Made by a program: the position numbers and the translations under genes
Shown: positions 1 to 61,243 of the stretch, piece by piece
Layout of the letters: each line of letters begins with the position of its first letter
Numbering within the stretch: position 1 is the first letter of the stretch
The notes under the pieces: model-generated
The model's input: the letters and a program-made list of their open reading frames with translations, nothing else
Databases searched by the model: none
Told to the model about the DNA's origin: nothing
Assembly (NCBI GenBank): GCA_035221665.1
Contig: CM069136.1
Coordinates: 56,544,001 to 56,608,000 of the forward strand
Length of the DNA: 64,000 nt
Direction of reading: 5' to 3'
Source of the DNA: Okamejei kenojei
Taxonomy: Eukaryota

Positions 1-1112
1 CCGAGGACCGTGAAATTTTCCTGTTCATAGGGATGTTGTTCGCAAGATGCCCGAGGTGCATGGGAGAGAGTGTCAGCGACATGCATGTCCTTACCCTTAG
101 TGTAGGTAATAGAGAAATCGTACCGCTGCAGCTGCATCATCATATGCTGCAAACGTGCTGGCGCGGCGTGGATGGGCTTGTTCAGGATTGTCACCAGTGG
201 TTGGTGGTCCGTCTCGACCGTGAAGGTGTTGCTAAAGATGAAGTCGTGGAATTTGGAACAAGCAAAACGACGGCCAACAGTTCCTTTTCGATTTGCATGT
301 AGTGCTGCTCCGTGTCGGTCATGGTGCGAGAGGCTTACGAGACGGGTAGTAGACTGCCCTCGGCAGGTGGTTGCAAGCAGGCTGCGCCAAGCCCGAATTT
401 CGAAGCATCACAGGTGATCGTCACCGGACGTTTCAGGTCGAAAAACATTAGAGTCGGTGAACTGGTCAGTTTGAACTTTTAAGATATTGAAAGCAATCTG
501 ATGTTGCTGGAACCATGACCATGCTGTGTCCTTTTTTGTCAGCTCCCGCAGTGTGGAGCTTAGTTCGCTGAGGTTCGGTATGAACTTGCCGAGATAGTTT
601 ACCATGCCCAGAAAACGCTGCAGGCTGTTCATGTCTGTGGGGGCAGGCATTTCTGTGATGGCAGTAGCCTTCTTCGGATCGGGTTTGAGACCCTTAGGAG
701 TGACGATGTGGCCGACGTAGGAAACCTCTGGAACCCAGAACTTGCACTTGTCAGGATTAAGCTTGAGGTTGATCTTGCGTGCGCGATCCAAGATGAGCCT
801 GAGATTGGTCGAGCTCTGTTGCATCTTTGCCATACACTTGGATATCATCGACAATGATGGCACAAGGTAGGTCCTCGACTAATAGCTTCATAGTTCTTTG
901 GAAGACTACACTGGCAGAGTTGATTCCGAATGGCATTCTCAGAAACCTGTATCTGCCGAATGGGGTGGCAAATGTGGTGAGGTTTGATGACTCCTTGTCC
1001 AGCGGTATCTGCCAGAAAGAGTTCTTTGCATCGAGGACAGAAAATAAGGTTGCCATTCCGACCTTTGCTGCAACATCCTTGACAGTCTTAATAGGATGGT
1101 GTGGGCGCTTAA

Positions 1113-1735
1113 TAGAAACATAGAAACATAGAAATTAGGTGCAGGAGTAGGCCATTCAGCCCTTCGAGCCTGCACCGCCATTCAATATGATCATGGCTGA
1201 TCATCCAACTCAGTATCCCGTACCTGCCTTCTCTCCATACCCTCTGATCCCCTTAGCCACAAGGGCCACATCCAACTCACTCTTAAATATAGCCAATGAA
1301 CTGGCCTCAACTACCCTCTGTGGCAGAGAGTTCCAGAGACTCACCACTCTCTGTGTGAAAAAAGTCTTTCTCATCTCGGTCTTAAAGGATTTCCCCCTTA
1401 TCCTTAAGCTGTGACCCCTTGTCCTGGACTTCCCCAACATCGGGAACAGTCTTCCTGCATCTAGCCTGTCCAACCCCTTAAGAATTTTGTAAGTTTCTAT
1501 AAGATCCCCTCTCAATCTCCTAAATTCCAGAGAGTATAAACCGAGTCTATCCAGTCTTTCTTCATAAGACAGTCCTGACATCCCAGGAATCAGTCTGGTG
1601 AACCTTCTCTGCACTCCCTCTATGGCAATAATGTCCTTCCTCAGATTTGGAGACCAAAACTGCACGCAACTCCAGGTGTGGTCTCACCAAGACCCTGTAC
1701 AACTGAAGTAGAACCTCCCTGCTCCTGTACTCAAA
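1113..1735 (-). mobile_element. CR1 LINE 3' fragment, subfamily A, copy 1 (inserted in Gypsy pol)
   Basis: ORF2 C-terminus YEERLDRLGLYSLEFRRLRGDLIETYK...RGHSLRI; (TTTCTATG)n 8-mer tail; 5'-truncated. Confidence 0.93.
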
Positions 1736-2250
1736 GTATTTGATTGGCAGTATTCAGTTCTTTTGAGTTGATGCACAAACGGATTTCATTTTTTCCCTTC
1801 TTGACTGTGGCAATCATGGTTGAGACCCAGTCGGTGGGGTCGCTGACTGCTTCAATTATGCCTGTGGAGGCCATGTCCTTCAGCGCAGAGTGAACCCTGT
1901 CAGTCATGGCAAATGACAATCGGTGTGGAGGTCGGATGACGGGTGTCACTTCGGAGTCAATAATAATCTTGTAAGTCACGGGCAACTTGCCCAGGTTGTT
2001 GTCAAAAAGATCAGGGAATTCACTCAGCGGGTCCAGGGAAATTTGCAACTTGTGGACCGTTTTGTCAAAGGAGATCAGCCCCAGTTCCTGACAGGCCCGG
2101 TTACCAAGCAGAGTAACTGAATTAAAGTTCAAGGCATAGAAGGTCAAATTCCTCGTGGTTTTTTACAGCACACATTTCAAGTTGGTTTTTCCCAAAGGCC
2201 GCAGAACCGCCCCTCCCCTTCAGCGTCTCCAATTGGAGGCGTTGGTTCGG

Positions 2251-8078: not shown

Positions 8079-8199
8079 AAAGTAGTTTTCAATTAATCCA
8101 GACCCATTCTTAAAACAATGGAAATTTTTCAGATGTTTCAGATTCTCAAGCAGTTATGTGCCACGGCAGAAATTGATGTTCAGCAAGTTTGATTACTGT

Positions 8200-8403
8200 G
8201 TAAGAAGGAACTGCAGATGCTGGATTAAACCGAAGATAGACACAAAAAGCTGGAGTAACTCAGCGGGACAGGCAGCATCTCTGGAGAGGAATGGGTGACG
8301 TTTTGGGTCTGAAGAAGGGCCTCGACCTATAATGTCACCCATTCCTTCTCCCCAGAGATGCTGCCTGTCCCGTTGATTTTCTCCAGCTTTTTGTATCTAT
8401 CTT
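8200..8403. mobile_element. Fold-back Penelope-pLTR-derived element with hammerhead remnant
   Basis: Inverted arms AAGATAGACACAAAAAGCTGGAG.../...CTCCAGCTTTTTGTATCTATCTT, central CTGAAGAAGGG; 15-bp TSD AAGTTTGATTACTGT at 8185-8199 and 8404-8418. Confidence 0.75.
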
Positions 8404-9574
8404 AAGTTTGATTACTGTTGGGTTCCTGGCACTATTTACATTCACAGTTGTCAAGCTAGGTTTTTGATTAAATAATTTTATCCACGTTTCAAACACCTCA
8501 GAGTCCTCATTCAAATCTATTGTCTATTCTGCAGTTTAGAATGGACAAAGCATCTATTTTAGGGATGTCAGTTGAAAAGAGAGCTCATCTGGAAGGCAGA
8601 TGGGTGAATGAGATCAGTTTACTTGTAACTTCCAAGCAAGCATTGCTTTAATGTGACCAACATTTGTACTGACTTTACCGGATGTGTATAAAATATCTTT
8701 GAAGTTCTTTTTTTTGGTTCCCGTTTGTCCATATGTTCAAAAATTTAAATTGATGCACTGCTTTGCTTGATTGGAAGCTGACAGTGTTATTTGTAATTTT
8801 AAACATATTGAAGTATTTTTTAACCAAGTATTTAAGTATGTTTTTTTATTTATTTAAGTAATTGAGTAATTTCAGTAAAATTTGCATTGAATACTTTGCA
8901 AAACATCTATAAGTGTTTCTTTTTGGTAAGGGAGGTTTGAAAAAAGTTGGATGTAGTTAACCTGAATTTTCAATATTTCAAGTATAACTTCATTAAGAGA
9001 GTAATGAAGTATAACTTCATTAAGAGAGTAATTTTGTTCAAAAATACCAATAAATAGCTACACTCCTCCTAAGCTCCTGAAAGGATGATGGTATATTCTT
9101 CACTTTCTGACCTTTTTCCATCTTTTATTTTTGTGAAAAGGGATAGCAAAGGCCAAAATATCATCAACCTTTCAGTTATCACATCTACTTGTAATCTCAT
9201 TGATGTTGTGCAATCTCATATTACCTTGGAAGGTCAAACATTCCTCTGTTCAAATTCAGATTTGTTACTTGATATTAGGCAAATGAGAATATATGACAAG
9301 GGTGACCATGATCTTGGTCTTCCTGTGTTAGATCCCTGCGCTTATTCTCCAGCCTTTGGTTTTCCAGGTATGATCCTGTATTCACTTCTCTCTGGGTGCT
9401 CTTTGCTACACAACTAAATCGAAAAAAATAAGTTCATTGCTAAAATATAATAGCAGAAAATGCATAAGTATCATACAGAAGAAGAGCAATTAATTAATAA
9501 GTAATAGCATTTGAACGGTACGGATAGGATTATGTGCACACTTTTCTGCTGTCAAGGCCCAGTATCATTGGTAC

Positions 9575-9772
9575 ACAAGAGACTGCAGATGCTGGAATCT
9601 TGAGCAAAACACAAAGTGTGAGAGGGATTCAGCAGGTCAGGTATCATCTGGGGAGGGTATGGACAGATGATGTTTCAGGTCAGGAATCTTCTTCAGACTC
9701 GTGACACGAAACACGTCTGACCATTCCCTCCCCAGATGCTGCCTGACTGGCTGGGTTCCTCCAGCATTTTAA
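9575..9772. mobile_element. Fold-back pLTR-derived element
   Basis: GACTGCAGATGCTGG head, inverted arms; minus-strand CTGAAGA-AGATTCCTGACCT-GAAAC at 9672-9696. Confidence 0.65.
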
Positions 9773-10704: not shown

Positions 10705-10812
10705 AACGTCACCTTGTCCTTTGCTCCACAAATGCTGCCTCACCCGCTGAGTTTCTCCAGCATTTTTTGTCTACCTTCGATTCTTCCAGCATCTGCAGTT
10801 CTTTCTTAAACA
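10705..10812 (+). repeat. pLTR-derived repeat, single arm
   Basis: AACGTCACC...ATGCTGCCTCACCCGCTGAGTTTCTCCAGC...CAGCATCTGCAGTT. Confidence 0.6.
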
Positions 10813-11282
10813 TAAAATCTAATATACTCTTTTTATCCAAGTAAACTGCAATGTATTACAAGTATAACAGTAACAGTGAATTGAATATATTTTAAATAGG
10901 TTAATCCTATTGATTTTATTTTTATATTAATTTCTTTTTAAATCACACTAATTTGATTGCTAAATCTCTAAATTATAGTATGTTTTTTTGCATGATCAAT
11001 TTGGATTCCTTATAATTGAATAATTTAATTTTCTTAATGTAATTTAACCTATCATGCTTTGCACACAGTGCACACTTGGGGTTTTTTAAGATATATATCT
11101 TCTTGAAGATAGTTCCAATCAACAATTTCAAAGTGAGTCATATTGCAATAAATAGCATCTGAGGCACCTCTCCCTTAAAATAATTACAACATTGTTAGGT
11201 ACTTAAGCAGATTATACTTAAGCAGAATCTTCCACCCTATTTTGTACCATGAGCAACTTGGCTGTTCCAATGTTGTCAAAAC

Positions 11283-16833: not shown

Positions 16834-16922
16834 AGACACACATTGTAGGAGTAACTCAGTGTTAGGCAGCGTCTCTCGAGAACATGAATAGTTGATCTTT
16901 CGGTTTGGACCCCTTCTTCAGA
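16834..16922 (-). repeat. pLTR-derived repeat with hammerhead core
   Basis: Minus strand CTGAAGA-AGGGGTCCAAACC-GAAA at 16898-16921. Confidence 0.6.
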
Positions 16923-18369
16923 ATGGCTGTCCATTTGAAGAGAATATCTTGTTTTCTGTGCATCCATAGCTTAACTGTGTTGCTGTTTGAAAGGCATCGG
17001 ATCCTGCTATGGTGTACAAACTTTAAAACCTAGGTGCTGGAGCATATTTAATTAAGTAGGAAATATGTTTTAACTTTACAGACCAGCATTACTCGAGGTG
17101 TGCACTTTGGGTGGAGAGTGAGAGCTAAATTCAGATATTTTTTGGGGGTATTCTCATCAACCTATTCAAAGGGAATACCTTTGGAACTTAATGGTAATGG
17201 AAAACAGTAATGGAAAACAATCAGATGTTGTTAGTTTATGCTTAGCCCTAAAACTCCCCTGGGGGCACATGTTACATAAGAAATTCAAATGTGAGCAATT
17301 TAGCACCACCTGATTTTTAGGTAAAATTAAATTAAATTCTCTCCACATGGCGAGATTCTATAGGCAATTTCTTCAAAGCTGCATTCAGTTGCTTTTATGC
17401 TATCACCACATCTGGTTTGGCTGGGGGCGCTAAGGTTAGATATTTTAAGCAGCATGGATGACAATTTTAGTCAGTGGTTTGATGTATCGTGAATGCTAAC
17501 TTTTTAACTTTAATTTAGGTGTTATGGTGCCTTTGAGGATTTTTAGTTATTTGTTAGGTTTTCAGTTTTGTTAAGCAATGCTTTGTTTCTCTTGCTAGAT
17601 TTGTCATAATTCATGTGAATGAATAGACATCTACAGTACAAATATCAGGGAGCAAATGTGATCATGACTCAGATAGGGCTACAAAACAATAAAGGCAGCT
17701 GTGTGATGGGGTTGAAACCATATAAAATTACCCACCTTGTGCAATCCACCATTGCAATGTTTTGTGACCTGAGGGATTGGCAATTATTGTTGTTTGCCAC
17801 AGACTATTCTTGATCGTATGTTGGAATATCATGTTTATTTTGGAATGTTACAGATTTAATACCAGTAAAGTGCAGAAACTAGATGAAGATTGAAAATAAG
17901 TGAAAAAGCAAAGTGCACAGAGGAAACTAGTTTTTGTTTATAATGTTTGTACTCATTTACTCTTCAAAAGAAATAATTAAAATGTTGTAAGCTCAATCAG
18001 TGATCTTTTCATGTCAACCAAATAAGCAGTAGTGATTATTTTCAGTCCTTTAGGGTTTACATATATACCAGCGGCCAAATCAACATGATGTAACATGAAA
18101 AATCTGCTGCAATATAAGTAAATATGTGTCCTTAGTTTGCTGAAGTTGGCAGAAACTGTTAAACTTCGATATGCTTTTAAAGTATAAAAACATTACACAA
18201 GGCGCGGGAGTCACTCAACAGGTCAGACAGCATCTCTGGAGATCATGGACAGGCGATGTTTCTTCAGTCTGAAGAAGGGTCCCAACCCGCCTTTTGCATA
18301 TGGGATCTGTGAACTATTTCTGTAGATGTGGTAAGTGTATGTGCTAAGGGGATGTGCTTGGGTATGCAA

Positions 18370-21161: not shown

Positions 21162-23036
21162 CAGCCTTCCGCTCACTCTGGTTACCCGACTTGGTAATTA
21201 AACCCGCCAACAAGGGAGGTGCCATGGTAATCTGGCGCGCTGACCTCAACCGGACTGAGACCAGGCGACAACTCTCAGACACCTCCTTTTACTTATTATT
21301 GGATCATGACCCCACAGATGAGCACCAGGCCTTAATATCACACACCATTACTGACTTCATCACATCCGGCTCTCTGCCCGCTAAAGCCTCCAACCTTATC
21401 GTTCCCCAGCCCCACACGGCCCGATTTTATTTTCTCCCCAAAATCCACAAATATAACTGTCCTGGCAGACCCATTGTTTCTGCTTGTTCATGGCCTACCA
21501 AATTAATTTCCACATACCTCTACTCCATCCTCTCCCCCCTGGTCCAATCCCTACGTCCAATATACCTCACACGCTCTGCGTCTCTTCAATGACTTCCAGG
21601 CCCCCACTCCCTCATCTTTACTAAGGATGTCCAGTCGCTCTACACCTCCATCCCCCACCAGGAAGGTCTTAAAGCCCTCCGTTTCTTCCTCGACCACAGA
21701 ACCAGCCAATTTCTGTCCACCAATACTTTCCTCCACCTAGCAGAGCTGGTCCTTACCCTCAACGACTTCTCCTTCGACTCCTCTCACTTCCTCCAGATCC
21801 AAGGCATAGCTATCGGGCACTTGTATGGGCCTGCCGCTTTGTAGGGTACGTCAAACATTCCCTGTTCCAGGCGTACACTGGCCCTACCCCGAACTCTACC
21901 TCCGCTACTTTGACGGCTGCATAGGTGCTACCTCCTGCACCCATGCAGAACTCACTGACTTCATCCACTTCATCACTAATTTCCATCCTGTACTCAAAGT
22001 CATTTGGACCATCTCCGACATCTCTCTACCGTTTCTCGAGCTCACCTTCTCCATCAGAGGAAATAGATTATTGACCGACATCTACTTTAAACCTACTGAA
22101 TAACAGAGCTATCTTGACTACACTTCTTCCCACCCTGCTTCCTCTCTATCACCCTTCTCCCAATTCCTCAGTCTGCGCCGCATCTGTGCCCAGGACGAGG
22201 TTTTACACACCAGGGCATTAGAGATGTCCTCGTTCTTTAGGGAACGGGGGTTCCCCTCTTCCATTGTAGATGAAGCTCTCACTAGGGTCTCCTCAATATC
22301 CCGCTCTTACTCCCCATCCCCCCTCTCATAACAAGGACAGAATCCCCCTTGTCTTCACCTTCCACCCCATCAGTCGTCGCATACAACATATAATCTTCCA
22401 ACATTTTCGCCACCTCCAAAGGGATCCCACTACTGGCCATATCTTCCCATCTCCACTTCCTTCTGCAGAGACCGTTCCCTCCTTAACTCCCTGGTCAACT
22501 CATCCCTTCCTACCCAAACCACTCCCTTCCCAGGTACTTTTCCCTGCAACCACAGGAGATGCAACACCTGTGACTTTATCTCCCCCCTTGATTCCATCCA
22601 AGGACACAAACAGTCATTCCAGGTGAGGAAGAGGTTCACTTGCACCTCCTCCAACCTCATCTACTGCATCCACTGTTCCAGGTGTCAACTTCTCTACATC
22701 CGCGAGACTAAGCACAGGCTCGGCGATCGTTTCGCTGAACACCTCCGCTCAGTCCATCTTAACCAACCTGATCTCCCGGTGGCTCAGCACTTCAACTCCC
22801 CCTCCCATTCTCAATCTAACCTTTCTGTCCTGGGCATCCTCCATTGCCAGTGAGGCCCAGTGCAAATTGGGGGAACAGCACCTCATATTTTGTTTGGGTA
22901 GTTTACACTCCAGCAGTATGACCGTTGATTTCTCTAACTTCAGGTAGCCCTTGCTCTCTCTCTCCTTCCCCTTCCCAGTTCACCCACTGGTACCTGCCTC
23001 ACCTGCTGAGTTTCTCCAGTATTTTGTGTGTACCTT
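21162..23036 (+). mobile_element. Penelope-like element (RT + GIY-YIG endonuclease), decayed
   Basis: IKPANKGG, FYFLPKIHK, PGRPIVS, DVQSLYTSIPH, YLRYFDG (YIDD remnant), FTCTSSNLIYCIHCSRCQLLYIRET.RL..RF.EH; ORF stop ~22947, then a pLTR remnant. Confidence 0.9.
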
Positions 23037-23533
23037 CCATAATTTATGATTGGTTTCATAATGGTAACATTTAAGAACGTCAAATAAATCATAGCAACTG
23101 TTTAGTCAGTTTCATCAGTGGTGACCTTTTGAGTAATTCTGCTGCTTTCTTTGATATTTTTTCTTCTTGATGTCTTGCAGCTTGATATTTTATAGGTGTA
23201 CTGATGGATTTTAATTTTGTTTTTTTTGTCACATTCGAGCTGGAGTGCATAACTCTCAACTCCCTCAACCAGCAATACAAAAATTATGGATTACAATTTT
23301 CTTAAAATAAATGGTTAGAAACATAATAGTAAGATTAAACGAGAACTTACCAGTTCGAAGTTTGATCATTATTTTATGAGGAGTAACGATGAGGGATTAC
23401 GTGAAGAAGCCCCGCCTGGCGCTAGAACGGCATACTTCAAAGCAGCGGCATGAAAAACACAGAACACCATAGCCGGAGTAAGATAGTAAGGCATAATCGA
23501 TAATATCAATTGATAGTGAAACAAAGCAGGTGA

Positions 23534-24480
23534 TTATAGTGAACCCAACACCGCGTATCCAAAGCCTGTCATTGTGTAAACAGGTTTATTGTAGAACTTT
23601 GAAAAAGTTTCTTCTTTACACCACCCTGCGGTTTCTAAAATGTGTTCGAGTGGTACGTCCTGTAACTTCGCCGCGGACGTAGCTGCTGCCCTGGTGGAGT
23701 GAGATTTGAACACATCAGTGTCTACTCCTGCTAAAAGTAACACCTGTTGAAATTGTTTGTACTGAAGCTTTTGTGTGTGGTTTCTTATGCATAATCATTA
23801 ATGTTTTTTCATCACCTCGAAGAGTTTTGGTAACTTTTATATATTGATTCAAATGTTTAACTACACACAACGTTGGATCAATAGGGTAAGCTTGAAACAT
23901 TACCTTTGCTCCAGTTCTCCCTGGTCTGCTTTGTTTGATCAGATCGTAAACATAAAACACAATGTTATCTGCAGCCACATGCATACAGTCTAAACGTAGC
24001 ATTTGTAATGTTTGCACCTTTTGTGCTGAAACCAATGGCATTAACATTACTAATTTAAATGTTAACTTTTCCAATGATAAAACTTCAATTGGAGTCCATT
24101 GCCTAAGTAAAGTAAGTACAATGCTGACATCCCAAATTTCTGTATATCTTGGTTTGGGTGGATTTTTGTTAAAGATTCCTTTCATAAATCTGGATATTAA
24201 TGCATGTGATCCAATTGATTTCTGGACAGAGATTTGTCCTAAATAAGATGATAAGGCACTACGTGCACTATTAATGGCACTATAACTTAAGTGCTGCTCA
24301 AAATGCAACTCAGCAAGGAACTCCAATATGTTTGCAATGTTCACAGTATGATAGGATATATTTGATTGTCTACAAAAATTTTCCATTTCTTTATATGTGT
24401 CATATATTGTTTCTGAGTGCTATCTCGCCATGATGCGACTATAACATCCATAGTTCTATCCGACAATCCAAGCTCTTGTA
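23534..24480 (-). pseudogene. DIRS ORF3 tyrosine recombinase (frameshifted)
   Basis: SAINSARSALS, PKPRY..IWDV, CVV, HSTR, GW...TF.KFY; frameshift near 23745; the first catalytic Arg position reads SAQK. Confidence 0.88.
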
Positions 24481-24489
24481 GTGGTCTGG

Positions 24490-26295
24490 TCAAAACCTGC
24501 AGATTAACAAATTCATATAAGCATGTAATGGATGAATCTCTTTGGTTACTGGTTTTATTAACAAATCACTGCTGCTAGGAATTGACATATATGGTTCTTT
24601 AATCATGTTTAACATCAATGGGAACCATGGTTGGGTCGGCCAATTGGGAATCACCAATAATCCTGTGGCAGAATCTTGTTCTATTTTCTTCAGACATTGC
24701 TGAACCAGAGCAAATGGCGGAAAAGCATAAAAGAACATATTCCCCCAATGTAGTGAAAAAGCATCTACTGCATCTGGATCTGGTTCCCAAGACACATATT
24801 TAGGCAATTGATGATTTAATCTTGATGCAAACAGATCAATGTCTGGTAACCCATATTGAATCACAATTTTACTGAAAATTACTGGGTTCAACATCCATTC
24901 TGTGTTGTCTTTAAACACCCTTGATCTATTGTCCGCCACCACATTATCTTTACCTGGGATATAATTTGCCAAAATCCAAATTTGGTGCTTAATACACCAC
25001 TGCCATATCTGATTTACCAGACAATCACATGATACCGATCTGACTCCACCCATGTGATTAATATATGCAACAGCTGTTTTATTGTCTAATTGTATCAGTA
25101 CATGCAGATTCTTTTTTGTTGAACAATAGGCTTTTTAATCCATAAAACGCCCCCAATAACTCTAAATAGTTAATACCATATATTTGGAGAAACATTTCCT
25201 CTTGGACAGTCCATCTGCCCCCACAACTGGTAAATGAATCTGTCGCCCCCCATCCGAGAGCACTAGCATCTGTTTGTAAAAATACTTCAGGCTGTTGTAT
25301 TAAAATGTTTTTAGCAGCTTGTGGGACATTTTCAATCCACCATTGCAATTCCAATAAAGCTTCTTTTGTTAATTGCATAGGCCTATCATAATGGCCTGCT
25401 CGCTTTTTTAGAGCTCTTATTTTGTCCCTTTGAAGGTTTTGGTAACGTAATGGACCAAATTCTACTGCAGGAAATGCTGCTACTAATTTACCAATAACAT
25501 TTGCTACTTCCTGGATGGAGGGATAAGGTTTGTGAATGAGACCCCTACAGACCATTAAAATATCATCAATCTTATCTGTTGGCAAAGTTACTAACATAGT
25601 AACTGAGTTAATCACAAACCCCAAACAGTTAATTGACTGTGCTGGCTGCAGCTGGGACTTAATTGGATGAATCAAGAAACCTAACTTCTCAAATAAAGTT
25701 TTAGTTGCTGAAACTAATTTTCCAGCTGATTCCTGATTACTACTGATAATTAAAATATCATCCAGATAAGCCATAATGATGTGCTTTTGTGCTCTTAATT
25801 GTGCTGAAGCTGGTTTCAACAGCTTTGTGAAGAGCCTGGGAGCTGAACTTAACCCATTTGGTAAAGCTTTAAATTGCCACAGCTGTCCCAGCCAATTAAA
25901 TTTTAAATACCTTCGAAAAAATTGATGTATTGGTACTGAATAGTACGCATCCTTTAAATCAATTGTAGCCATATAATAACCTGCTGATATCAAATGTCTT
26001 GTAGTGTTGAACATTTCCATCTTAAAATGTTTATACTCGACAAATGTATTAAAGTTTGTAAGGTCCAGAATAATTCTGCAACCACCATCTTTTTTACTTC
26101 TTGGAAAGATATTTGACACACATTGATGTTTATGTTCAACAGTTTTTTCAATAACACCTTTTTTAAACAATTTGTCAATTTCCACATTAATTTCTGCTTC
26201 TTCAATAGCAGAAAACATGAAACCATAAGCAGGTTTATTTTGTACCGGAGAGTTAACACCCTCTTTAAATGTTATAGTAGCTCCTGAAACTGTAA
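24490..26295 (-). pseudogene. DIRS ORF2: reverse transcriptase, RNase H and N6-adenine methyltransferase-like domain (frameshifted)
   Basis: IDLKDAYY, LPNGLSSAPRLFTK, YLDD, TDASALGWG, INYLEL, DN.TAVAYINHMGG; MT-like DLFASRLN...YAFPPF; frameshifts near 26295 and 25130. Confidence 0.88.
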
Positions 26296-27618
26296 AATAA
26301 ACCGATCAGATGTGATGGCAAGCCATTCATCATAAAACATTTGTAATCTCCCTCCAACTGGAGATTTGTCCACAGTTTCTTTAAGAATAGAATAAATTTT
26401 TTGTACCTCTCCATATGAACGTGGTGGTCTCCTTCTCCCCGTATACGGGTGAACATTTGGCTGTGTCGGATGGTAATATTTTCTTATCATATTCCTGCCT
26501 CTGTTTCCAAAATCAAATCCCCTCCTTGACGAAAAATACCTTTTTTGTCCAAAACCGAAAGGTCTCATGTGGCTAATAGATTTAGCCTCTTCATCCATTT
26601 CTCTTATTTGTTTAGGCAGGTTCTCTCCAAATAGATAACCAGGAGCTTGAACACCACTTGATCGACACAGACCTGCAAACCTTGGATGAAATATGGGCCG
26701 AATCGCAATTTTCCTCATACAATTAATTTCATAAAAGGAATTGCACAATAAGCCCAAAGTATCTTTTTGGATTTTAACCATTTCCGACCCTTCCATTTGC
26801 CTTCCAAAAGCAGTAATGGCAGCTGAAATCAGTTTGAGGATTCTTTGAAATCTTATTTCTTGTCCTCTCATGCCTGGAGTCATAGGCGTCCATATAGACG
26901 GATTAACCGTAGGTACCTTCAATGAGGTGCAATTTTCCGGTGTTTTATATAATTCTGCTGTTTCAATCATCACAGAATCTTGAAGTTGGTGAGATACCAT
27001 ATAATTAATACTGGCAGCTAGGTTTTCTTCCATAGCCTCACCACTTCCTTCAGGTATAGCAAAATCTTTTGCCATATCAGGCACATCTGGCCTCTTCTTT
27101 TTTATTTGTGGTGTGCACTCATAATCCACATCACCACTTGCAGGGTCTGACTTTTGCAGCCCTGATACACCTGGAATTATATCCAATGAGACTTCCTCCA
27201 CCCTTAATCCTGGGTCTGGAGTTTCAAATTCCCAATTTGGCACATAGCCATATTCTGGATATTCAAACCCCTCAGGGTCATTTTGGGAAACTTCTGGGTA
27301 CTGTGACCCTTGCCTCATTATATTTTGGAGCACTTTCTCCATATGTTCCATTTTAAGCCATATAGCTTTATTATCCGGAGGACTTTCATTATCAGAGTCA
27401 ATATCAGAAACCACGGGCCTCACGGATTTCTTTTTACTTTTTCTAGGAATATTTTCCTCCGTGGTTTGCATTTCTGGAGAAATTATAGTCTCACTAACGG
27501 GTGAATCTGCGGCCACCGGTATCGGAACCGTATCCGCACTAATCTCTTGTCCCGACTCTTTAGCTTCACCCCGGGATGATCTTTTTACCCGCGAAATTTT
27601 CCTTTGAGACTTCTCCAT
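26272..27618 (-). CDS. DIRS ORF1 (gag-like), running into the pol N-terminal motif
   Basis: 448-aa ORF with P.NC..L.VP.VN..IW and LFGENL motifs; ends with VGGRL..F...W..IT.D, typical of the DIRS pol start. Confidence 0.75.
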   Translation of the reverse strand: MEKSQRKISRVKRSSRGEAKESGQEISADTVPIPVAADSPVSETIISPEMQTTEENIPRKSKKKSVRPVVSDIDSDNESPPDNKAIWLKMEHMEKVLQNIMRQGSQYPEVSQNDPEGFEYPEYGYVPNWEFETPDPGLRVEEVSLDIIPGVSGLQKSDPASGDVDYECTPQIKKKRPDVPDMAKDFAIPEGSGEAMEENLAASINYMVSHQLQDSVMIETAELYKTPENCTSLKVPTVNPSIWTPMTPGMRGQEIRFQRILKLISAAITAFGRQMEGSEMVKIQKDTLGLLCNSFYEINCMRKIAIRPIFHPRFAGLCRSSGVQAPGYLFGENLPKQIREMDEEAKSISHMRPFGFGQKRYFSSRRGFDFGNRGRNMIRKYYHPTQPNVHPYTGRRRPPRSYGEVQKIYSILKETVDKSPVGGRLQMFYDEWLAITSDRFILQFQELL

Positions 27619-28139
27619 TTTTCTCTTTTATTATCTGGCTAAATCAGTACACCAGCGTGACTCTGATTTTAAATTTTACTTTCACTTTTGCTGGTTCTAC
27701 CAGCGTAACGTCTTTTTTAGAACGTCCCCTATTTTCCTTGCACTTACCTGCGGGTCCGTTCCGGCCGCTGCGAGGAGCTGCGCTCTGCAGCTCTTGCTTC
27801 TGCCGTCAGTGTCGACGTAATGGCCGTTCTAGCGCCAGGCGGGGCTTCTTCACGTAGTCACTCACGTGACTCCGAAGTAAAATTCAACTTTTGCATTGAA
27901 TCTTTCTGTCAAATGGCATGATATTCTTATCTTGGGATATTGTAGTACTATGGTCTAGTTACCAGAACTGCTATGTGAAGGCCTAGTCTTTGATGTGCAG
28001 GTGAGTTTGAATCCCACTGTACCTAGGCAATTAAAATGAATATTACATAAAATGAAAGGCCATATCAGTAATGGCAACTATAAATGCCCAACTGGTTCAG
28101 AAAATTGCTGATCTTAATCTGCTTATGTTTTTGTTATGA

Positions 28140-37908: not shown

Positions 37909-38118
37909 CATATAAAACAGTGGTAGAATGTTCTTAATTAGGTTTTATTGAGAGGAAAGTCGTTAACAGTATAGTGACTAATGCTGTTCTAGGCATTATA
38001 CTCTGAAACAGTTTAGGTGGTCAATTAAGACGGTTTGCATGACGTGTGTGATATTGTGCTCGGACGAAGGGCGTAGTTACCAGTCGGAATTATGCTCAAT
38101 GAAGCATTCACATATTAT

Positions 38119-38335
38119 GTTCAAGAAGGAACTGCAGATGCTGGAAAATCAAAGGTAGACAAAAGTGCTGGAGAAACTCAGCGGGTGCAGCAGCATCTAT
38201 GGATCAAAGGAAATAGGCAACGTTTCAGTCCGAAACCCATCAGTCTGAAGATGGGTTTCGGCCCGAATTGTTGCCTATTTCCTTCGCTCCATAGATGCTG
38301 CCGCATCCGCTGAGTTTCTCCAGCACTTTTGTCTA
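38119..38335. mobile_element. Fold-back pLTR-derived element with two opposed hammerhead-like cores
   Basis: ~85-bp near-perfect arms GTAGACAAAAGTGCTGGAGAAACTCAGCGG/CCGCTGAGTTTCTCCAGCACTTTTGTCTAC; CTGAAGA-TGGGTTTCGGCCC-GAAT at 38245-38268; 14-bp TSD CATTCACATATTAT at 38105-38118 and 38336-38349. Confidence 0.8.
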
Positions 38336-39039
38336 CATTCACATATTATTTCTGCTTCAAATAACTCACAAACTTAACATATTCACCAATCAAGACATGA
38401 TATATGCCACAATGACATGCAGCAAAATTATAAAACAATATCTCAACTCTTTTTACACATTGCAATTAATGCAATTTCTATTAGTTCTTTCCACTTCCAA
38501 ACAAAAATGTGGTTGGATTATTCAGCAAATGATCAACCTGTGTCAATAAATCCGGGACCATGGTAACATATATGCTTAACCATGCACACTACAGATTGAT
38601 GCAAGCATGTTTTCTGTGAAGGACCGAAAATTACCATGACATGGCCATAGCATGGGTCGTTATTGCTATTGACACTTTAACACTCTGGCTTCCCACATAT
38701 TTTTTCCATAACAAAATGTACAGGTTGCAAGGATTTCGAAAGGCATTTTATGATAATAACTGTTTAAACCGACTATACCCATCTGACAGGTTAAACATTA
38801 CACTAACTGACAAGAGATGGCCAAAGGACATAACTGCAGCAAATGTTCTTTTGGTAATATGTTTAAAGGTGTCAAAACAAATAATAACATTGGGAATTAA
38901 AACACATTTGATTGCATTCCATTATCAAACATAATCAATGTTCGCTCTGAAGACCATGAAGCCAATAGGGTCAGGGGGTGTGTGAATCAGTGCGGGGTGG
39001 ATAGATGGCGTGCGGGGGGGGGGGGGGGGGGGTGGTGGT

Positions 39040-39720
39040 TGAGGAGGCAATCGGTGCGGAAGGAATGGATTGAGGCAGGTGAATTAGTACGTGTTGGTTG
39101 GAGTATGTAAAATTGTGAGGGGATCAGTACGGGATGGATGGAGGGGATCAATATAGGATGAATGGGGGTAGATGAGTACGGGATGGATGGGGGGATCAAT
39201 ACAGGATGAATGGAGGGATCAGTACAGGATGAATGGGGGGGTCGCACAGGATGCATGGAAGGATTAGTACAGGATGAATGGGGGGAGGGTCAGGACAGTG
39301 TGGATTGGAGGGTCTGTGCAGGATGAATGGGAGATCACTACAGGATGAATGAGGGGATCAGTACAGGATGAATGGGTGGCTCAGTAAAAGATGAATGGGT
39401 AGTTCACTACAGGATGGATGGGGGGTTTGGTGCAGGATAAATGGAGGGTGGGTCAGTACGGGATGAATGGGTGGCTCAGTGCAGTATGAATGGGGGAGTA
39501 GTGCAGGATGGATGGGAAGGGGGGTCAGTTCAGGATGAATTGGGGGACCAGTGTAGTATGGATGGGGGGGGGGGGGGTGGCAGGAGAATCAATGTGAGAT
39601 GGGTTGGGTGATGAATAGATTGGGGGGGGGGGGGGTAGATGGGGAGTATAGTACAGGGGATGTCAGTGAGGACTGAATAGAGGAGGGAATGGGGATCAGT
39701 ACAGGATGTAGAGGAGGGGT
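39040..39720 (+). repeat. G-rich minisatellite, ~22-bp unit GGGGGATCAGTACAGGATGAAT
   Basis: More than 20 diverged tandem units visible, with poly-G runs. Confidence 0.85.
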
Positions 39721-40273: not shown

Positions 40274-40544
40274 AAGAGGGAGAGGGAGGCCTCCTTTCAC
40301 CGGGCGGGGTGTGGGGGGAGGAGGCGTTGGAGCCGCTGTTGCGGCTGCTGATGCTGCTGTTGCCACTGTTCGGGGCCCATCATTCGCTCCGACCCTTCGT
40401 CACCACGCCCCACAATCAAAGATACTAGAGGAATACAGCCGCCGCCGTCGACACGAAACGTCACGTTCCTATACTCCAGAGATGCTGCCTGACCCGCGGA
40501 GTTACTCCAGTTTTTTGTGTCAATCAGAATAAACCAGTATCTGC

Positions 40545-43051: not shown

Positions 43052-43459
<408 letters not shown>

Positions 43460-45451: not shown

Positions 45452-45548
45452 GAAGGTCAAGAAAGGTCTCGACCTGAAACATCACCCATTCCTTCTCTCC
45501 AAGATGCTGCCTGTCTGCTGAGTTACTCCAGCTTTTTGTGTCTATCTT
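45452..45548 (+). repeat. pLTR-derived arm
   Basis: GGTCTCGACCTGAAACATCACCCATTCCTTCTCTCC...GAGTTACTCCAGCTTTTTGTGTCTATCTT. Confidence 0.6.
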
Positions 45549-48708: not shown

Positions 48709-50779
48709 AGTTGAGCAAGACCGGTAAATGGACGAATTATTGCTGTAGAAAATTGCATACAGCCAACTGCTAAAACATTCAATGATAAAGGAAAAGTGGA
48801 TGACACCAATACAATGTTGATGGTGTGGGAATTAGCAAATGAAGTGCAAAGGGGTTTGTGATGTTTTATTAATCTCTTAATGTCATATCACATGGAGTGA
48901 TCAGCATAGCAAATATAATATTATATATTGCATATAAATCAGAGTATTATACTAAAACTGCATTGTTTATATCCTGTACTGAATGCTGTTCAGTTTTGTT
49001 GTTTGAACCACCAAAAGGAGATTGAAATTAGAAGAGAATGAAGCCAATTCTCTTATATTTTAAAATCAGAGATGAAGACAAACGCTAGTGATCTTTTAGC
49101 ATGGTCACAGATGCAGCATTATATTGGATGTAAATGAGCATAGGTGAGGTAAATCTGAAGCCGTTGTTTCAAAGCAACGTATGATATTTGTGCAAGGATA
49201 CAAAGGCAGTTCTGCTATAATACAATAGTTGCATCCCTCAGAAACTTTATGTTTTGGAAAATCAAAACAATTGTCAATGGGGTTAAGGGTGTTTAGGGGT
49301 TGGAGAGTTTCAGACTCACAGTAACAAAGTTAGCCTTCCCTGGTTGGATTTTCAAAAATAGAGGTTTTTAAACTAAGTTTATTTTTGTTACCACAAGCTA
49401 AACATACTGAAGGCTGAATGCTACATTGAGTAATAATGAACGTGTCAATAGGAGCAGACACTTAATTTCAATGGCCCCTTGCAGTGAAAGCAGAATTTTT
49501 TTTTTTTTTTTCCCAATACAACTTTTTTATCTGCTTGTCAATTTCCAAAATATGTTTAAAGTGACTCTCTAGTACCTGATTGAAATTGCACAATTTACTT
49601 TGGAATAACCAATTAGGCCTGCACAAATAATGTTCATCAATAACATTATATCTAGTCATGTTGAGGAAATGAGAACCATCTGTATTTGTTAAAATTGGTG
49701 AAAGGAGCAATGTATTCAAATATCAGGAATAACATGGCACAAAGTACTTTCAGCAGTCAAAATAGACACAATGCTGGAGTAACTCAGCGGGTCATTCAAC
49801 ATTCAAGAGATTCAAGTTTCAATTTTGGACACTGATATAATCACAGTAGCTAAGATGTGTTGAACAACCTCCCACATTGACCTGCCTCACGCAACGACAA
49901 TATTGGGAATCTGTTTTTTGACCTGGAACTTGATTATGATTCATTACACTTTCATTTGTATTCTCTCTGCAGATCTATGAAAGTATTTGAAAATTAAAAG
50001 AATTGTAGGTGCTAGAAATCTAAAATTAAATTGCTAGAAACACTCAGCTGGTCAAGCAGCCCTGCAGGAAGAGAATCAGAATTAACATTTTGAATCAAAG
50101 TTATTAAAATTTTTTGTCTCTTTCAGAAGGCTGAGTGCTTACAGCATGTGATTCCTCTATCATAAATATATTATTTTATATATAAAAATATACCCACTAC
50201 ACGTGTTATTCCATAACAACTTTTCAGTTCAATTACAAAAGAAAGTAAATAATCAGTATAATGAATGATTCATTATGGTTCATTCGATACGCCAAACTCT
50301 CCTGTCAGATCACATTACTGGGTAGGACTAGCATTTGTTACCTTCTTGCTTGTGTAAAAATAGTGTGGATAACTTGCAATGCTTAAGTTATATATCTGTT
50401 TTGATATACCCGGCAATAGCTTAAAAAAAGAACAAATCATGCTTTGTAATTTGGGTACTTTAATTGTTTTCCAGACTGAATTGTCAGTTAAAGGCTAAAT
50501 CATTTTTAAACTTAAGTGGCGGTGAGGTGAGGGAGGAAAGGACCAGAATATATTTCTGTTTCATTATTTATTATCCCTGAGGTGTTGACACAATTTTTAG
50601 TGGAATCAACTGAGCCTACTGGCTAAGACATACTCAAACATAAATAAGACTTTATTTTCGATAAGCAGTAACTCTGATAATGAAATGCACAAGATGCAGC
50701 GTAGGGGCATCAATCAGCCCATGGAGTCAGCCTGTCTGGCCTGCCTGCACTCACTGCTCCAAGGGGTTTGCATGTGTCC

Positions 50780-51380
50780 AGTCTGAAGAACGGTCCCAAC
50801 CTGAAATCATACCTATCCATGTTCTCCTGAAATGCTGCCTGACCTGCTAGAGTTACTCCAGCATTTTGTATCTTTGTATATCCAGTTTGGGTGCCCACCT
50901 TGACTCATCATTCTTGCGGCCTACAAGGTTTGGTTCTGTCCCATTAGATTTGCTGCTGGCCCACAGTCCCTAAGGTTCTACTTCTCATGGTCATAGTCAT
51001 ACAGTGTGGAAACAGGCCCTTCAGCCCAACCTGGCCACACCGACCAACATATCTACACTGGTCCCACTTGCCTGTTTTTGATCCATTTCCCACTAAATCT
51101 AAACTATTCATGTTCCTGTTTTAATGTTTCTTAAACATTGCGATAGAAACTGCGTTAGCTGTTGTTGGCTTTCTGGTCTTATCGCTTGCCAGGCTTTGTC
51201 CTGCTTCCAGTTTTCTCAGCCTTTTCCAGTTTTCTCAGCCTACTACAATCAGTCTAAAGAAGGGTCACAATCTGAAACATCATCTATCCATTCCCTCCAC
51301 TGATGTTGCCTGACCCGCTGAGTTATTACAGCACTTTGTGTTATGCTCTGGATGCCAACATTGGCACTTCCTTATGTTTC
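50780..51380. repeat. Cluster of two pLTR-derived arms and a CR1 tail
   Basis: CTGAAGA-ACGGTCCCAACCT-GAAA at 50783-50806; CR1 tail ~50990-51140; second arm ~51245-51380. Confidence 0.55.
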
Positions 51381-52080: not shown

Positions 52081-52696
52081 TAAGTACTTTCACATCATAG
52101 GGTAATGTTTGCCTATGATATTTCATTATTTGGTTCATGGCCTCCTCAGTGCATCATTTCTCATTGTAGTGGTCAAAGATGAAACTACCATGAATGAGAA
52201 TGAATTCCGCACAACATTAATTCAAAATGCTGATTTGATTAATTCACGATCAGTGTGACCTCCATCATCACAATAACCGGGTTAAATAACAGGGTTTCAT
52301 TTTTGGTGCCTTAACCATGGTACATTTCCTTTGCAATCTAGATTTATTTTTGTCTTTTCCCCACCTTTGGTGCTCTGTGTAAATTTTAGATGCTTGTTTT
52401 TTATTTTATTTGCAAAATGTTATTAAATATGTAGTTTTGCTATTGACATTTTTCAAATATTGAAATCTAACTGCATAGAAATGGGATTTCATGATGGAAA
52501 TTGTTGCCAAGTATAAAAACAAGACCAATAAATCTACTTCCTACATAGTTTTGATGGTTATATTTATTCATGAACAAAGATTGTGTTGAATGAAAAGCCA
52601 CAATGAAAATTAAGCATCAATTAAAAAAAAGTTTTTGAATTGAAAGTCCATAAAGTTTACAGTAATAATAATTACATTCCATCTGGTAATTGTCCT

Positions 52697-52894
52697 TCGA
52701 TAGACACAAAGTGCTGGAGCAACTCAGCGGGTTAGACATCATCTCTGGAGAAACAGGATAAGGGATGCTTTTCGTGTTGGGATACTTCTTTAAACTTCTC
52801 CTTTTTCTCCAGGATGCTGTCTGATCCACTGAGTTACTCCAGCACTTTATGTTCTTCTGTGTAAACCAGCATCTGCAGTTCTTTGTTTCTACAA
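52697..52894. mobile_element. Fold-back pLTR-derived element
   Basis: Inverted arms; 11-bp TSD GTAATTGTCCT at 52686-52696 and 52895-52905. Confidence 0.7.
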
Positions 52895-55240
52895 GTAATT
52901 GTCCTGTATTGGATGTACTTAAACATTGGATAAACATCCGATTTCCTTTCCTGATGAAGCCCCTTATGAAATGATAAATCTGAGAAATGCTGAAGAATTA
53001 AATTTGCTCCAATTTCAAGCAGAATTGGACCTGGGATGAATTGCAAAAAGATAAGCACTCGTTAATTTTATGTTGGATTCTAAATTAATATCAAAAGGTA
53101 ACTTCATTCTGCAATGAACCTGTGGGAACCATTAATTGGTTATTCTCATTTTCCAGAATAATTAAGAATGCCCCTTCCCTGGACCCATTTCCATTCTTGC
53201 TTGGTCACCGGAGCTTTTCCATTAGACTGGTTTATTATGTGATTGTGTAAATTTTTTATTATGATTTGAAATCATCTTTTGCTTTCCAATTCAAGATTTC
53301 CTATTAATCCAGTGGTTAAATAAAACTATATCCAAACATTCATTTGATTTTTCTCTTTAATCTTCTTGTATGTCAAAGTCATTGGAAAAATATAACAAAG
53401 CTCATGAGATATGATGGAAAGTGGGAGTATTGCTGACGGGGTTTATGCCTTTTATCTTCTTGCCCCATAATTAAGTTCATGCTGTGATTAATTGAACACT
53501 TGGCATAGTGAATTACTTTAAATGGTTAATTTTGCAGAATGTTTGTGGAAGCTTTTCCTCAAGTTAAAAATCGAGAGACTGCAGTTGAAGGATATGCCCC
53601 TGCCTCAGTATGAGAGGGCAAACCACCTTGGATGTGATTTGCAATTAGATAATTATTTAGTGCAAATTTTTAAAAAGGATAACATGTTAGTAGTTTCTTA
53701 TGCAGTCACATAGCTGTAAAGAAATTACCACTGCACTGCTACTCTCATTCTTTTCATGATACCTAATTGACCCTAAACTTTACCGTCTTTAAGAGGCCAG
53801 CCTGAAAGCCAGTTTTACCTTCTTTTTTTCTTTGTCAACAAGAAGTTAATTACTTTTATTCCTGCTGACCAATGGAAATAAAAAGCATGTTTCTCATTGA
53901 TTACTGGTTTATATAAAATATTACAGGATATAAATGTTATCAATGAAAATAATGTACACGCTTGCTCTTCCTGGACATAATAGGAATTTGAAAATAAGAA
54001 TTGTGTACACCATTTGGTAGTAAACAATTGTAAATAAGTGTGGAAGGAAGTGAGAAAAATCTACTCATTCAGTCATTCAACTACCTCCTTCCTATTTAAT
54101 TTATTCAATTTCACAATTAGCTGGATTTTGAGCTATTCTTATGTTGATCCTAGTATGTAACAGCAGATTTTTTTCAGAATAATCATTGTTCTCACAGTGC
54201 ACTAGTCATTTTCTTCTGTGTGACTGGCTTATCCAAAGATCAACATAGGAAACAAACTAATAAATCACAGGAAATTATTTATGATAAAATGCATGTCATT
54301 CAGGTTTTATATTATACTTGCCTCTTAATGTTTATGCTCGGGAAGGCCGCCTTTAACTTCCCCTGTGGCTGTACATATGACACTGCACTGATCCTTTCAT
54401 AGGATTTTGCAGAACCAGTCCACGTCTATTTCAGTAATGTGCAGTTGTTTTTATCCAGTCACATAAATTAATCCTAGTCTTTTGCCGTGATCTAATTTCC
54501 GTTTCATAAAAATCTAATGCTTGAGTAGGAATTATCTTTTACAATTAGATTCTATTTTTTTCCCTGAACAAAATAGAATACATTTGCTTCATAGCCTCTG
54601 GTGTTTTGTGTTTTTTTAATTAATGTGTGATTTTTGTTCTTTCCTTGAGCTTGAACCTCTTGAATTTGAGTGGTAAATTTAGTTTCTGCTTTCTCTACCC
54701 CAAAACATGATTTGTTTTAAATTTTACAAACTGCATCCTTTGTAGTCATTATTTTCTCTACCTGCGTTAACTGCAGATTTGACTGGTATGTAGTTGGTTT
54801 CTATTTATGTACCAAAAATTTAAGTGTTCTGCAGTAAGTCTGCCTATTCCTTTTGTTCCCATAATCCACTCCATTCAGAGACTTTATGTCGGTTGTGTTG
54901 ACGGGTTTCCCAGGAATTGCACGGTTATCGGATCATGTCAAGTAGAATTACAGGAACTCCAAATAAATCAGATGAATGCTTAGATATTTCTAAAACTTAT
55001 TCAAAGCCTACTAGAGAGTGTACAGTATTTATAAATGCTTTGAATATTTGCATATTAATAACAATACGGTATTTGATATTTTAAAATTGTTTTTACTGTT
55101 AAATGTCTAGTACAAGGCTTATTGGTTTTTCCTAATTTTACAAAATATTGAAATTCCTCTAGTTTCCAATGAACTGTGATATGCAAATTTTAGTCCTTGA
55201 ATTGATTGGCTGTGAAGAAAATAAACAAAATAAACTGCTT

Positions 55241-59091: not shown

Positions 59092-61243
59092 CAGGGCTAC
59101 CAACTCTCACGCATTGAGCGTGAAACTAACTAATTTGAGGAAATTCTCACGCTCGCACGCTGATGACAGAAGTTCTCAAGCTCAAAAAAATATTTTAAAA
59201 AAAAATATGAATAGATAAATAAAGTCACACTCCTCCACACTCACCAATGAGAATAGTTTTTTTGTTGGCGGGTTCCCTGTTAAGAACGAGCAACAGACTT
59301 AAGCCCATCGCACACTATTTAAAATGGCAATGTAGACAAAAATGCTTGAGAAACTCAGCGGGTGAGGCAACATCTATGTCTGAGTTTGACCCTTCTTCAC
59401 ACTCAAGCATTTCTCCAGCATTTTTGTCCACCGCTCTATAGATGCTGCCTCACCCGCATTCACATTCCCGTGCAGATGGTGTGAGAGATGAGACGTGGCG
59501 GTGGTCCCAGCACCAACCCCGCGTTCCCCCCCCCCCCCCCCCCCTCAGGCACCGCTCACACCCCCACCCTCACCTGCGGCGGCTCTGTGGCCGTCGGCCG
59601 CTCTGTCCACACCACATGGAGTTGCCAGGAGCGAACCGGGTGAATGGGGGCGTCGGTGAAGTCTCCGGAGCCGCGGGGATGAATCTCGGGCTATATCTCC
59701 GCTCCGATGCCTGATCCTTAGGTCACTGACCCTCACCTCCCACGGACCCCAGCTGGACACAGAGCATCCAGGCTGGCCCGCATTCCCGGGGAGGGGGGGA
59801 GAGAGGGAAATGCTCCCTGGACATCGCCAAGTCCCCGCTCACTCTGGGTGTTGTCGCCGCTTCACTGACACACACTCTGCACAACCTAACACACACTCTC
59901 ACACACAACCTAACACACACACTTACACACACACAAGGTTTAAAGGGATATGGGCCAAATGCGGATACATGGGACTAGTTTAGATGGGGTATCTAAATCT
60001 GCATTTACAAGTTGGGATGAAGGACCTGTATCCATGCTGTAAGATTGTGACACACTGCAGAAAGGGTGCAATTGCTCTGGAGAGGATCCAGGGGCGATTT
60101 ATGAACATATTGGCGGGGCTTGAATTTTTTTTTCACTTTGAAGAAAGATTTGATAACTGGGATTGTATTCTCTGTAGCAACGGAGGTGAAGAAAAGACTT
60201 AGTTGAGGTGAATAATATTATGAGAATAGGACCTGTTTCGCTTAACAAAGAGTGTAAGAAGGAACTGCAGATGGTGTTTTAAACTGAAGATTGACACTAA
60301 AAGCTGGAATAACTCAGCAGGACATGCGGCATCCCTGGAGAGAAAGAATAGGTGATGTTTCGGGCCGAGACCTTCAGACTGAAGAGGTTGAAAACCAGCC
60401 ATAAAACACAATGACTGGAGATGTGTGTTATCCAACTAAGGGCAGTAATTATAATCATGTGTTCATCTTTGTTGACGTGACACCATAATAAATATATTAC
60501 AGAAAAAATAATTTAATGTGGTGGCACGGTGGCGCAGCGGTAGAGTTGCTGCCTTGCAGCACCACAGACACAGATTTCATCCTGACTATTTGGTGCTGTC
60601 TGTACAGTATTTGTACATTCTCCTTACGACCACATGGTTTTTTCTGGATATTCCGGTTTCTCCCACATCTGTGCAGGTTTGTAGGTTAATTGGCTTCTGT
60701 AAATTGTCCATGGTGTGTAGGATACAACTGGTGTAAGGTAGATTTCTGGTCGGTATGGACTTGGTGAGCTGAAGGGCCTGTTTCCATATATATGTTTTAC
60801 ATATATACCTTAATTTCATTGAACCGTATACGGTTGAATATGTGGCATTATTTTCGACTTGTTTCTATAGTCGAAGGGTAAGGTTGATTGATTTATTTGT
60901 GCAGAACAGTGATGGAACTCAGAACACTGATGGAACTCCTCTTGCCTTGTTTCTAGGTTTTTGTTTCTCTATATATACGCATAACAGCCTGAATTATAAT
61001 CTGATTTCCATACATGAATATACTAAGGTCACTCATGTGCTGCACCTGTTGATCAGAGCCTGGCTCTACTGTGGAATATAGTTAGGAATGTAATTTAGCC
61101 TATCCTTATTCATACCTAATCCAATTTGAAGCATAAATGTTGCATTCAAGTGTAAGTTAAAAGACTCGCAACAGTATGCACCAGATTGCACAATTTCAAG
61201 CTGAAAAATGCAAAAGCTCCCTACTAAAATGTTGGCAGCCCTG
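59092..61243. mobile_element. Non-autonomous hAT-like DNA transposon (2.15 kb) with 6-bp TSD
   Basis: TIRs CAGGGCTACCAAC / GTTGGCAGCCCTG; GATAGG at 59086-59091 and 61244-61249; splits a pLTR repeat that rejoins when the element is removed. Confidence 0.75.
60519..60790 (+). mobile_element. HE1-like V-SINE nested in the hAT-like element
   Basis: GGTGGCACGGTGGCGCAGCGGTAGAGTTGCTGCC head; GAAGGGCCTGTTTCC tail. Confidence 0.78.

Follow-up and report, generated by a model that had tools for sequence, protein, structure and literature searches.

Judging from their sequence, the short fold-back elements scattered through the genome of the skate Okamejei kenojei are, with a probability of about 0.8, pairs of terminal repeats of a Penelope-like element (PLE) lying head to head, likely made anew at each insertion by cutting of both target strands and priming of two short cDNAs. 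As elements they are ordinary, the skate hairpins being the shortest form of a published layout of PLE insertion. The hammerhead ribozyme motif that they carry is likely an inherited and mostly broken passenger, not the engine of a new mobile element.

Hairpins in the Window

The window is the whole stretch of DNA analysed here, 64,000 nucleotides of contig CM069136.1 (positions 56,544,001 to 56,608,000). The original prediction placed about 15-20 related copies in it and described complete copies as two inverted arms. An arm profile built from 11 loci finds 25 arms at 21 places and covers 15 of the 16 positions first listed; position 28140 is recovered through its right arm at 28266, and 4895 is only a weak local alignment. 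Head-to-head pairs occupy only 4 of the 21 places, and all the others are single arms.

The target-site duplications (TSDs) reported around three of these hairpins are exact, with lengths of 15 bp (8185/8404), 14 bp (38105/38336) and 11 bp (52686/52895). Since they enclose both arms, each hairpin was inserted as one unit, as had been proposed. The fold-back at 8185-8418 is 81% self-complementary over 193 nt (self-match), and 3 nt of microhomology (8307-8309) are common to its two arms. The features are collected in Table 1, in model coordinates in which +1 is the G two bases before CUGANGA, +3 the hammerhead C3 and +23 G12, cleavage being expected after +30.

Table 1. PLE-derived features of the window (window positions; arm extents in model coordinates).
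Feature	Position	Strand	Remarks
Left TSD copy, 15 bp	8185..8199	.	Exact repeat of 8404-8418
Left arm, PLE terminal repeat, +18 to +133, without CUGANGA box	8200..8309	-	Profile and alignment
Tail of about 33 nt of this left arm	about 8200-8232	-	
Right arm, PLE terminal repeat, +1 to about +97, tail-less	8307..8403	+	
Decayed minimal hammerhead	8309..8336	+	CUGAAGA intact, GAAA altered at G12 and A13; sequence, alignment
Right TSD copy	8404..8418	.	
Older fold-back	9579..9771	.	Left arm tailed, right arm from +18; no convincing TSD
Fold-back, 14-bp TSD	38105..38349	.	Left arm tailed, both cores broken
Fold-back, 11-bp TSD	52686..52905	.	Right arm tailed and starting near +43, left core broken
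Single arm, +25 to +133, tailed	10705..10814	+	
Single arm from -1, tail-less	16834..16925	-	
Single arm, +16 to +117	40448..40544	+	
Single arm, +6 to +97	45459..45548	+	
Single arm from -1, tail-less	50779..50872	+	
Single arm with tail and short piece of PLE 3' UTR	51239..51373	+	
Single long arm, -2 to +132, tailed	60252..60382	-	Partner arm nearly absent
Broken, 5'-truncated parent PLE copy	21162..23040	+	RT and GIY-YIG relics; 82.6% over 1251 nt to locus L015

Two loci at most 100 kb upstream (L053 and L058) repeat the 38105 hairpin together with its TSD and as much as 1.6 kb of flanking sequence; this hairpin is therefore a single insertion that was duplicated locally. The duplication that carries it is present three times within about 120 kb (window 38008-40000, L053 7337-9401 and L058 3163-4342; 76-93% identity). 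Empty insertion sites for the 8185 hairpin were sought in contigs of other organisms and none was seen. At window 8365-8900, contigs of two runs, X19 and X23, from organisms H and K, align with the right flank and stop inside the right arm. There is a weak sign that the 8185 insertion may be older than the split from organisms H and K.

The neighbourhood of these copies contains other relics. Positions 23715-27627 (- strand) hold a retrotransposon relic with an RT (Pfam RVT_1, E 1e-19) and a weak Dam methylase match, which we take to be DIRS-like, with recombinase-like and gag-like frames. In the same way, 408-2162 (-) presumably holds LTR-type RT fragments and 32440-32976 (-) a DDE_3 transposase relic, and several window frames are presumably CR1-like LINE pieces. 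A protein kinase exon is found at 43052-43462 (+; Pfam Pkinase, E 7e-6), which we assume from its motif to be MAP4K-like; the nearby PLE copies are therefore probably intronic. Positions 40100-40284 form a GC-rich, near-perfect inverted repeat of 185 bp, unrelated to the PLE arm, that matches Rfam MIR7533 with an E of 1e-15, far below the gathering score.

The Parent Element

Each arm is a hammerhead-bearing PLE end of about 100 nt, with or without a tail of about 33 nt. Genome-wide, 4,324 sites match a 39-nt hammerhead pattern exactly. In 6 of the first 30 of these loci, the PLE type known from 21162-23040 is present, and its GIY-YIG end and 3' UTR run directly into the arm. The proposal that this PLE type (given then as 21162-23036) mobilises the hairpins is borne out, the arm forming its 3' end in these loci and also adjoining the long frame of locus L171. 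The window copy has lost its own hammerhead, its terminal arm covering only +56 to +100. The RT segment of this copy has 12,842 first-look candidates in the assembly.

Twenty loci were chosen for long open frames from 150 that were scored. In L171, an open frame of 1197 codons lies directly downstream of an arm and its tail and matches RT and GIY-YIG (Pfam RVT_1, E 5e-6; GIY-YIG, E 0.004; both below the curated cut-offs). Its translation includes a C-x4-C-x2-C cysteine motif in the RT-EN linker. A Zn-finger-like cysteine motif between RT and EN is given for Neptune and Nematis in PMC8557442, and the parent PLE is likely of the Neptune type.

A partial tandem forms pLTRs in three of the 20 loci (L171, L173 and L180): the upstream partial copy ends with arm and tail and runs straight into the ORF, and the arm on the downstream side extends only to the inner site. 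This layout indicates a double role for the arm, which closes inserted copies at their 3' end and also heads the ORF-bearing unit. Furthermore, 5 of the 20 loci contain an inverted 5' copy of 413-1684 bp. L176, L181 and L183, read by eye, are inverted and one-tailed, with TSDs of 13-14 bp. Taken together, the short hairpins and these multi-kb inverted, one-tailed, TSD-flanked PLE copies indicate a continuum, of which the hairpins are the short end. The inverted PLE of L176 (4575-8252; 3.5 kb, 14-bp TSD) lies inside an arm of an older hairpin.

Arms, Tails and Target-Site Duplications

The survey covered 1,464,000 bases, i.e., 120 ten-kb stretches at round coordinates on large contigs, 20 others beside the window, and the window itself. 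Among the 550 profile hits, the 529 that align to a reference were kept; 343 of these arms stand alone, and the other 186 make up 93 head-to-head pairs. In the dispersed 1.2 Mb taken separately, the densities are 359 arms and 64 pairs per Mb, which extrapolate to about 990,000 arms and 177,000 pairs in the 2.76-Gb assembly. Hairpin length ranges from 111 to 465 bp, with a median of 187 bp (93 pairs).

The 3' ends of the 330 well-matched arms are bimodal, at about +91-97 and +128-133, the outer class corresponding to the tail. Both classes of end recur, at positions 8197 and 8232/8233, among the loose ends listed with the best support in contig sets X19, X21 and X23. Once 17 pairs with a short arm are set aside, 76 pairs have two intact ends; exactly one arm is tailed in 67 of them compared with 37.7 expected (p = 1e-12), eight pairs being tail-less and one two-tailed.

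Direct repeats of at least 9 bp, mostly 13-16 bp, flank 33 of the 93 pairs, 36 of 331 solos and none of 392 re-paired controls. TSD-flanked hairpins, a count of which had been proposed as a check, are therefore far above the control level, while 60 pairs have no TSD by the same rule, as do 22 of the 39 younger ones. The two arms of a pair also share more derived differences than permuted arms (18% versus 10%, with a maximum of 12% in 60 permutations) and are more alike in sequence (85.7% versus 81.7% identity).

Formation of the Hairpins

The most probable course of an insertion would be as follows. The protein of the element would cut both target strands, the staggered cut yielding the TSD. 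On RNA of the same source, priming would begin at the tail site for one strand and at the inner site for its counterpart. Both cDNAs would then run out near the 5' edge of the ribozyme and join through microhomology, and the ribozyme, inherited from the parent PLE, would end up locked inside the hairpin. A lizard PLE protein was found in vitro to cut and extend both strands, with RT starting at two sites that bound the tail; this reaction is independent of ribozyme cleavage, and a protein dimer was predicted (PMC11167929). In the skate, we infer two-strand priming from fossil insertions, not from cDNA intermediates. It should be emphasized that the concordance between arms could also reflect finer subfamilies or conversion within the palindrome.

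The 5' Boundary of the Arms

The arms have a preferred start, as 98 of the 330 well-matched ones begin at -2 to +2, and the 3' UTRs of different PLEs converge on YCAGTCT at this boundary. The consensus of the initiator is YYANWYY, and YCAGTCT at the arm start, with its A at position 0, fits an initiator-like motif. The start site of a downstream PLE lies within the upstream pLTR according to PMC6765202. With a view to a cap-derived G, the base that precedes the start A was counted: it is G in 5,895 cases genome-wide versus A or T in 13,079, and among the first 100 listed matches of a subfamily pattern, counted by hand, it is G in 36, A in 42 and T in 22. A TSD with exactly one extra G is found in only 2 of 30 G loci (L256 and L260).

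This pile-up of 5' ends may be due to stalling of the RT at the ribozyme or to short copies acting as sources. A tentative reading, held at somewhat under even confidence, is that the short copies are run-off products: transcription would start at the A located 5' of the hammerhead, a dimer of the RT-endonuclease would prime both strands about 100 and about 130 nt inward on RNA of the same source, the cDNAs would anneal at the 5' quasi-palindrome, and the copied template would be one left uncut by the ribozyme.

Single arms could instead behave like SINEs, a source arm with an internal start signal and priming sites being re-transcribed and feeding both solos and hairpins. The clustered 5' ends could also come from a non-autonomous source, which counts against the preferred explanation of the hairpins. 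In favour of SINE-like sources, 86 of the 96 solos starting at -5 to +6 have unique upstream DNA, and 25 of the 34 solos with a TSD of at least 10 bp start in this interval. A tandem unit of 66 nt (+23 to +89) that recurs without change at unrelated positions in three loci (L071 5953, L091 1649-1781 and L097 8738-8804) would also agree with them. However, the variants of the arms match those of body-attached PLE copies, and the arm of L171 heads an ORF-bearing unit, so that a separate source is unneeded for short products; SINE-like sources thus appear rather unlikely. Tandem units of 54 nt are also found in both arms of L032 9231-9581. The CUGANGA box is absent from the 66- and 54-nt units, which may come from a source with an internal array or from repeated re-priming of the RT.

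Junctions between the Arms

The junctions of the 93 pairs have 86 distinct coordinates. The arms had been thought to meet at the hammerhead core, which does not hold for all of them, as both arms span it in 13 pairs and neither arm does in 32. Some junctions are recurrent. For example, the tailed arm starts from +18 and its partner from +1 in 5 of the 93 pairs, and a symmetric 19-nt junction has 2,747 exact matches; the commonest symmetric junction is a quasi-palindrome. In 7 of 30 symmetric-junction loci, one and the same tail-less hairpin lies inside a TTAA-flanked MITE of 620-660 bp, presumably Kolobok/T2-like. This MITE, which has terminal inverted repeats, was observed in L115, L118, L119, L124, L129 (about 1297-1956), L132 and L135. 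Four of the remaining 23 loci have no tail. In the 19 others, the centre base can be assigned to the tailed arm 10 times and to its tail-less partner 9 times. This 10:9 ratio argues against a single master hairpin, which would fix the relation between base and tail. L117, also among the 30 loci, is a chimera of two subfamilies, a point against the preferred explanation.

Inverted pairs of fixed spacing (340 and 378 bp) were considered as a discrete family and rejected: they ride inside a larger young repeat and have lost the GAAA box. A young repeat in L281-L287 and in L249 from 6274, 91-99% identical over the compared part, holds two GAAA-deleted PLE hairpins beside a GT-rich tandem array. 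The few shared-junction sets examined are passengers of other repeats.

Self-priming was proposed for the Adineta Penelope (PMC3846280). Applied to the same parent PLE, a single cDNA or antisense template would fold at the junction palindrome and then be copied. The quasi-palindrome of the commonest symmetric junction would suit this mechanism, as would the excess identity between arms and their private variants, such as a deletion common to both arms of L130. However, a fold-back copy cannot exceed its template, yet some pairs are mutually non-nested, the tail-less arm having 5' sequence absent from the tailed arm, up to 249 nt of PLE body. The origin of the centre base from either arm equally and the chimeric L117 also tell against self-priming, which seems improbable. 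The centre-base ratio, the non-nested arms and the one-tail rule together lead us to prefer two-strand priming to self-priming; later conversion or deletion could blur the centre-base, chimera and non-nesting tests.

The Hammerhead Motif

The CUGANGA and GAAA boxes had been taken as a hammerhead core. Intact family members do have a true minimal layout, alignment revealing in young copies the core boxes, the extra base after A9, G10.1-C11.1 and the palindromic helix III; in the three TSD-flanked copies of the window, however, the core is intact in none of the six arms. It is intact in 23 of 62 body-attached arms and in 18 of the 74 fold-back arms that span it, which leaves 76 of the 93 pairs with no intact core, 16 with one and a single pair with two. 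G12, which lies within a CpG, is mismatched in 27% of 263 core-spanning arms, like other CpG sites. The non-CpG core positions vary less than neighbouring ones (134/2574 versus 402/3257), which fits conservation in the source elements.

The hammerhead covariance search suggested at the outset, made with Rfam on the window, gave no hammerhead at E<=1 and only generic hairpin hits. RNA folding of single arms did not give the monomer hammerhead fold, the probability of G10.1-C11.1 being 0.03 or less. Opening the core is predicted to cost 49 kcal/mol in a young hairpin, compared with 4-8 kcal/mol when the arm is single. When a head-to-head unit is transcribed, its antisense arm comes first. Furthermore, the 5' ends of the 330 arms have no peak at the cleavage site, with three at +31 and 10 at +29 to +33 compared with the 98 at -2 to +2; only 6 of the 186 fold-back arms start at +29 to +33.

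These data bear on the discrete retrozyme-like family of the original prediction, whose hairpins would be transcribed, self-cleave or circularise, and be copied from master hairpins by the PLE enzyme. Such a family would explain the high copy number, the TSDs enclosing the whole unit and the recurrent junctions. It is nevertheless very improbable, considering the diversity of the junctions, the centre base that no master fixes, the symmetric-junction loci that ride in a MITE, a size range from 111 bp to several kb, an arrangement that is head-to-head and not tandem, a core that is mostly broken or base-paired shut in the hairpin, and 5' ends that do not gather at the cleavage site. The contrary possibility, simple PLE truncation products with random end points, is largely correct as to truncation and incorrect as to randomness. 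As for two independent solo insertions side by side, or a later rearrangement, single arms are abundant and PLEs do insert into older copies, as in L176, but this reading is hardly credible and is refuted by the single TSD enclosing both arms and by the orientation bias (the first sample has 66 head-to-head pairs but only a single close tail-to-tail one), as well as being at odds with the strict one-tail rule and with a same broad subfamily in both arms of 78 of 79 pairs.

Comparison with Known Elements

Inverted-pLTR PLE insertions with a palindromic head-to-head junction, a one-sided tail and a TSD are already described in PMC3846280 and PMC8557442. The skate hairpins share with Pen2a_Av of Adineta and with the general PLE scheme the inverted terminal repeat, the palindrome or overlap at the junction, a tail of 30-40 nt on one arm and the enclosing TSD. 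They differ from what is given there for Adineta in being mostly ORF-less, with a median of 187 bp and about 64 per Mb, in their TSDs (mostly 13-16 bp versus 8-10 bp in Adineta, PMC3846280), and in their 5' ends, which cluster at the 5' edge of the ribozyme.

The motif resembles the type I minimal hammerheads of metazoan PLEs, as presented in PMC4209133, by its CUGANGA box, an extra base before G10.1-C11.1, a short stem II and a palindromic ACGU replacing helix III. According to the same study, these are also mostly single motifs from truncated PLEs, opposite-strand hammerhead pairs 100-700 bp apart were already noted in Schistosoma, and helix I has only 2 bp in D. virilis, as it appears to have in the skate.

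Poseidon of Anolis carolinensis (PAc) is similar in that RT starts internally at two sites which delimit the tail, and in having a hammerhead and tail at the start of the ORF region, and no sign of ends at the cleavage site (PMC11167929). It belongs to a different clade, the skate PLE having the cysteine motif in the RT-EN linker. Compared with PAc, the first ATG of the long frame of L171 lies after the tail, not in stem II (PMC11167929). Inverted genomic products are not analysed in the main text of the PAc study.

Metazoan non-LTR retrozymes are, according to bioRxiv 10.64898/2026.07.22.740005, also non-coding, pLTR-related, PLE-dependent and endowed with a type I hammerhead. Their definition in that preprint requires a head-to-tail tandem in which two or more successive units have an intact hammerhead, whereas the skate units are head-to-head and mostly broken, and neither hammerhead-bearing tandem units nor copying from a shared master was found. 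A literature search outside Repbase, Dfam and subscription papers found no study of this PLE family in cartilaginous fish, and the examined passages of PMC5753468 contain nothing on this skate PLE family.

Significance

The value of the skate hairpins lies in their number, since about 180,000 hairpins and 1 million arms, by extrapolation, make a very large natural data set on how inverted PLE ends are formed, a question called unresolved in PMC8557442. Annotation pipelines should treat such hairpins as PLE ends and avoid the labels retrozyme, MITE and microRNA hairpin. A testable prediction of two-strand priming, against the published proposal of self-priming, follows from the one-tail rule, from arms that are not nested and from a centre base without bias. 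In addition, the pile-up of 5' ends predicts that transcription starts at the 5' boundary of the arm. If the run-off reading is true, the ribozyme would be at the very head of the mRNA, and about 1 million short copies would map the PLE reaction.
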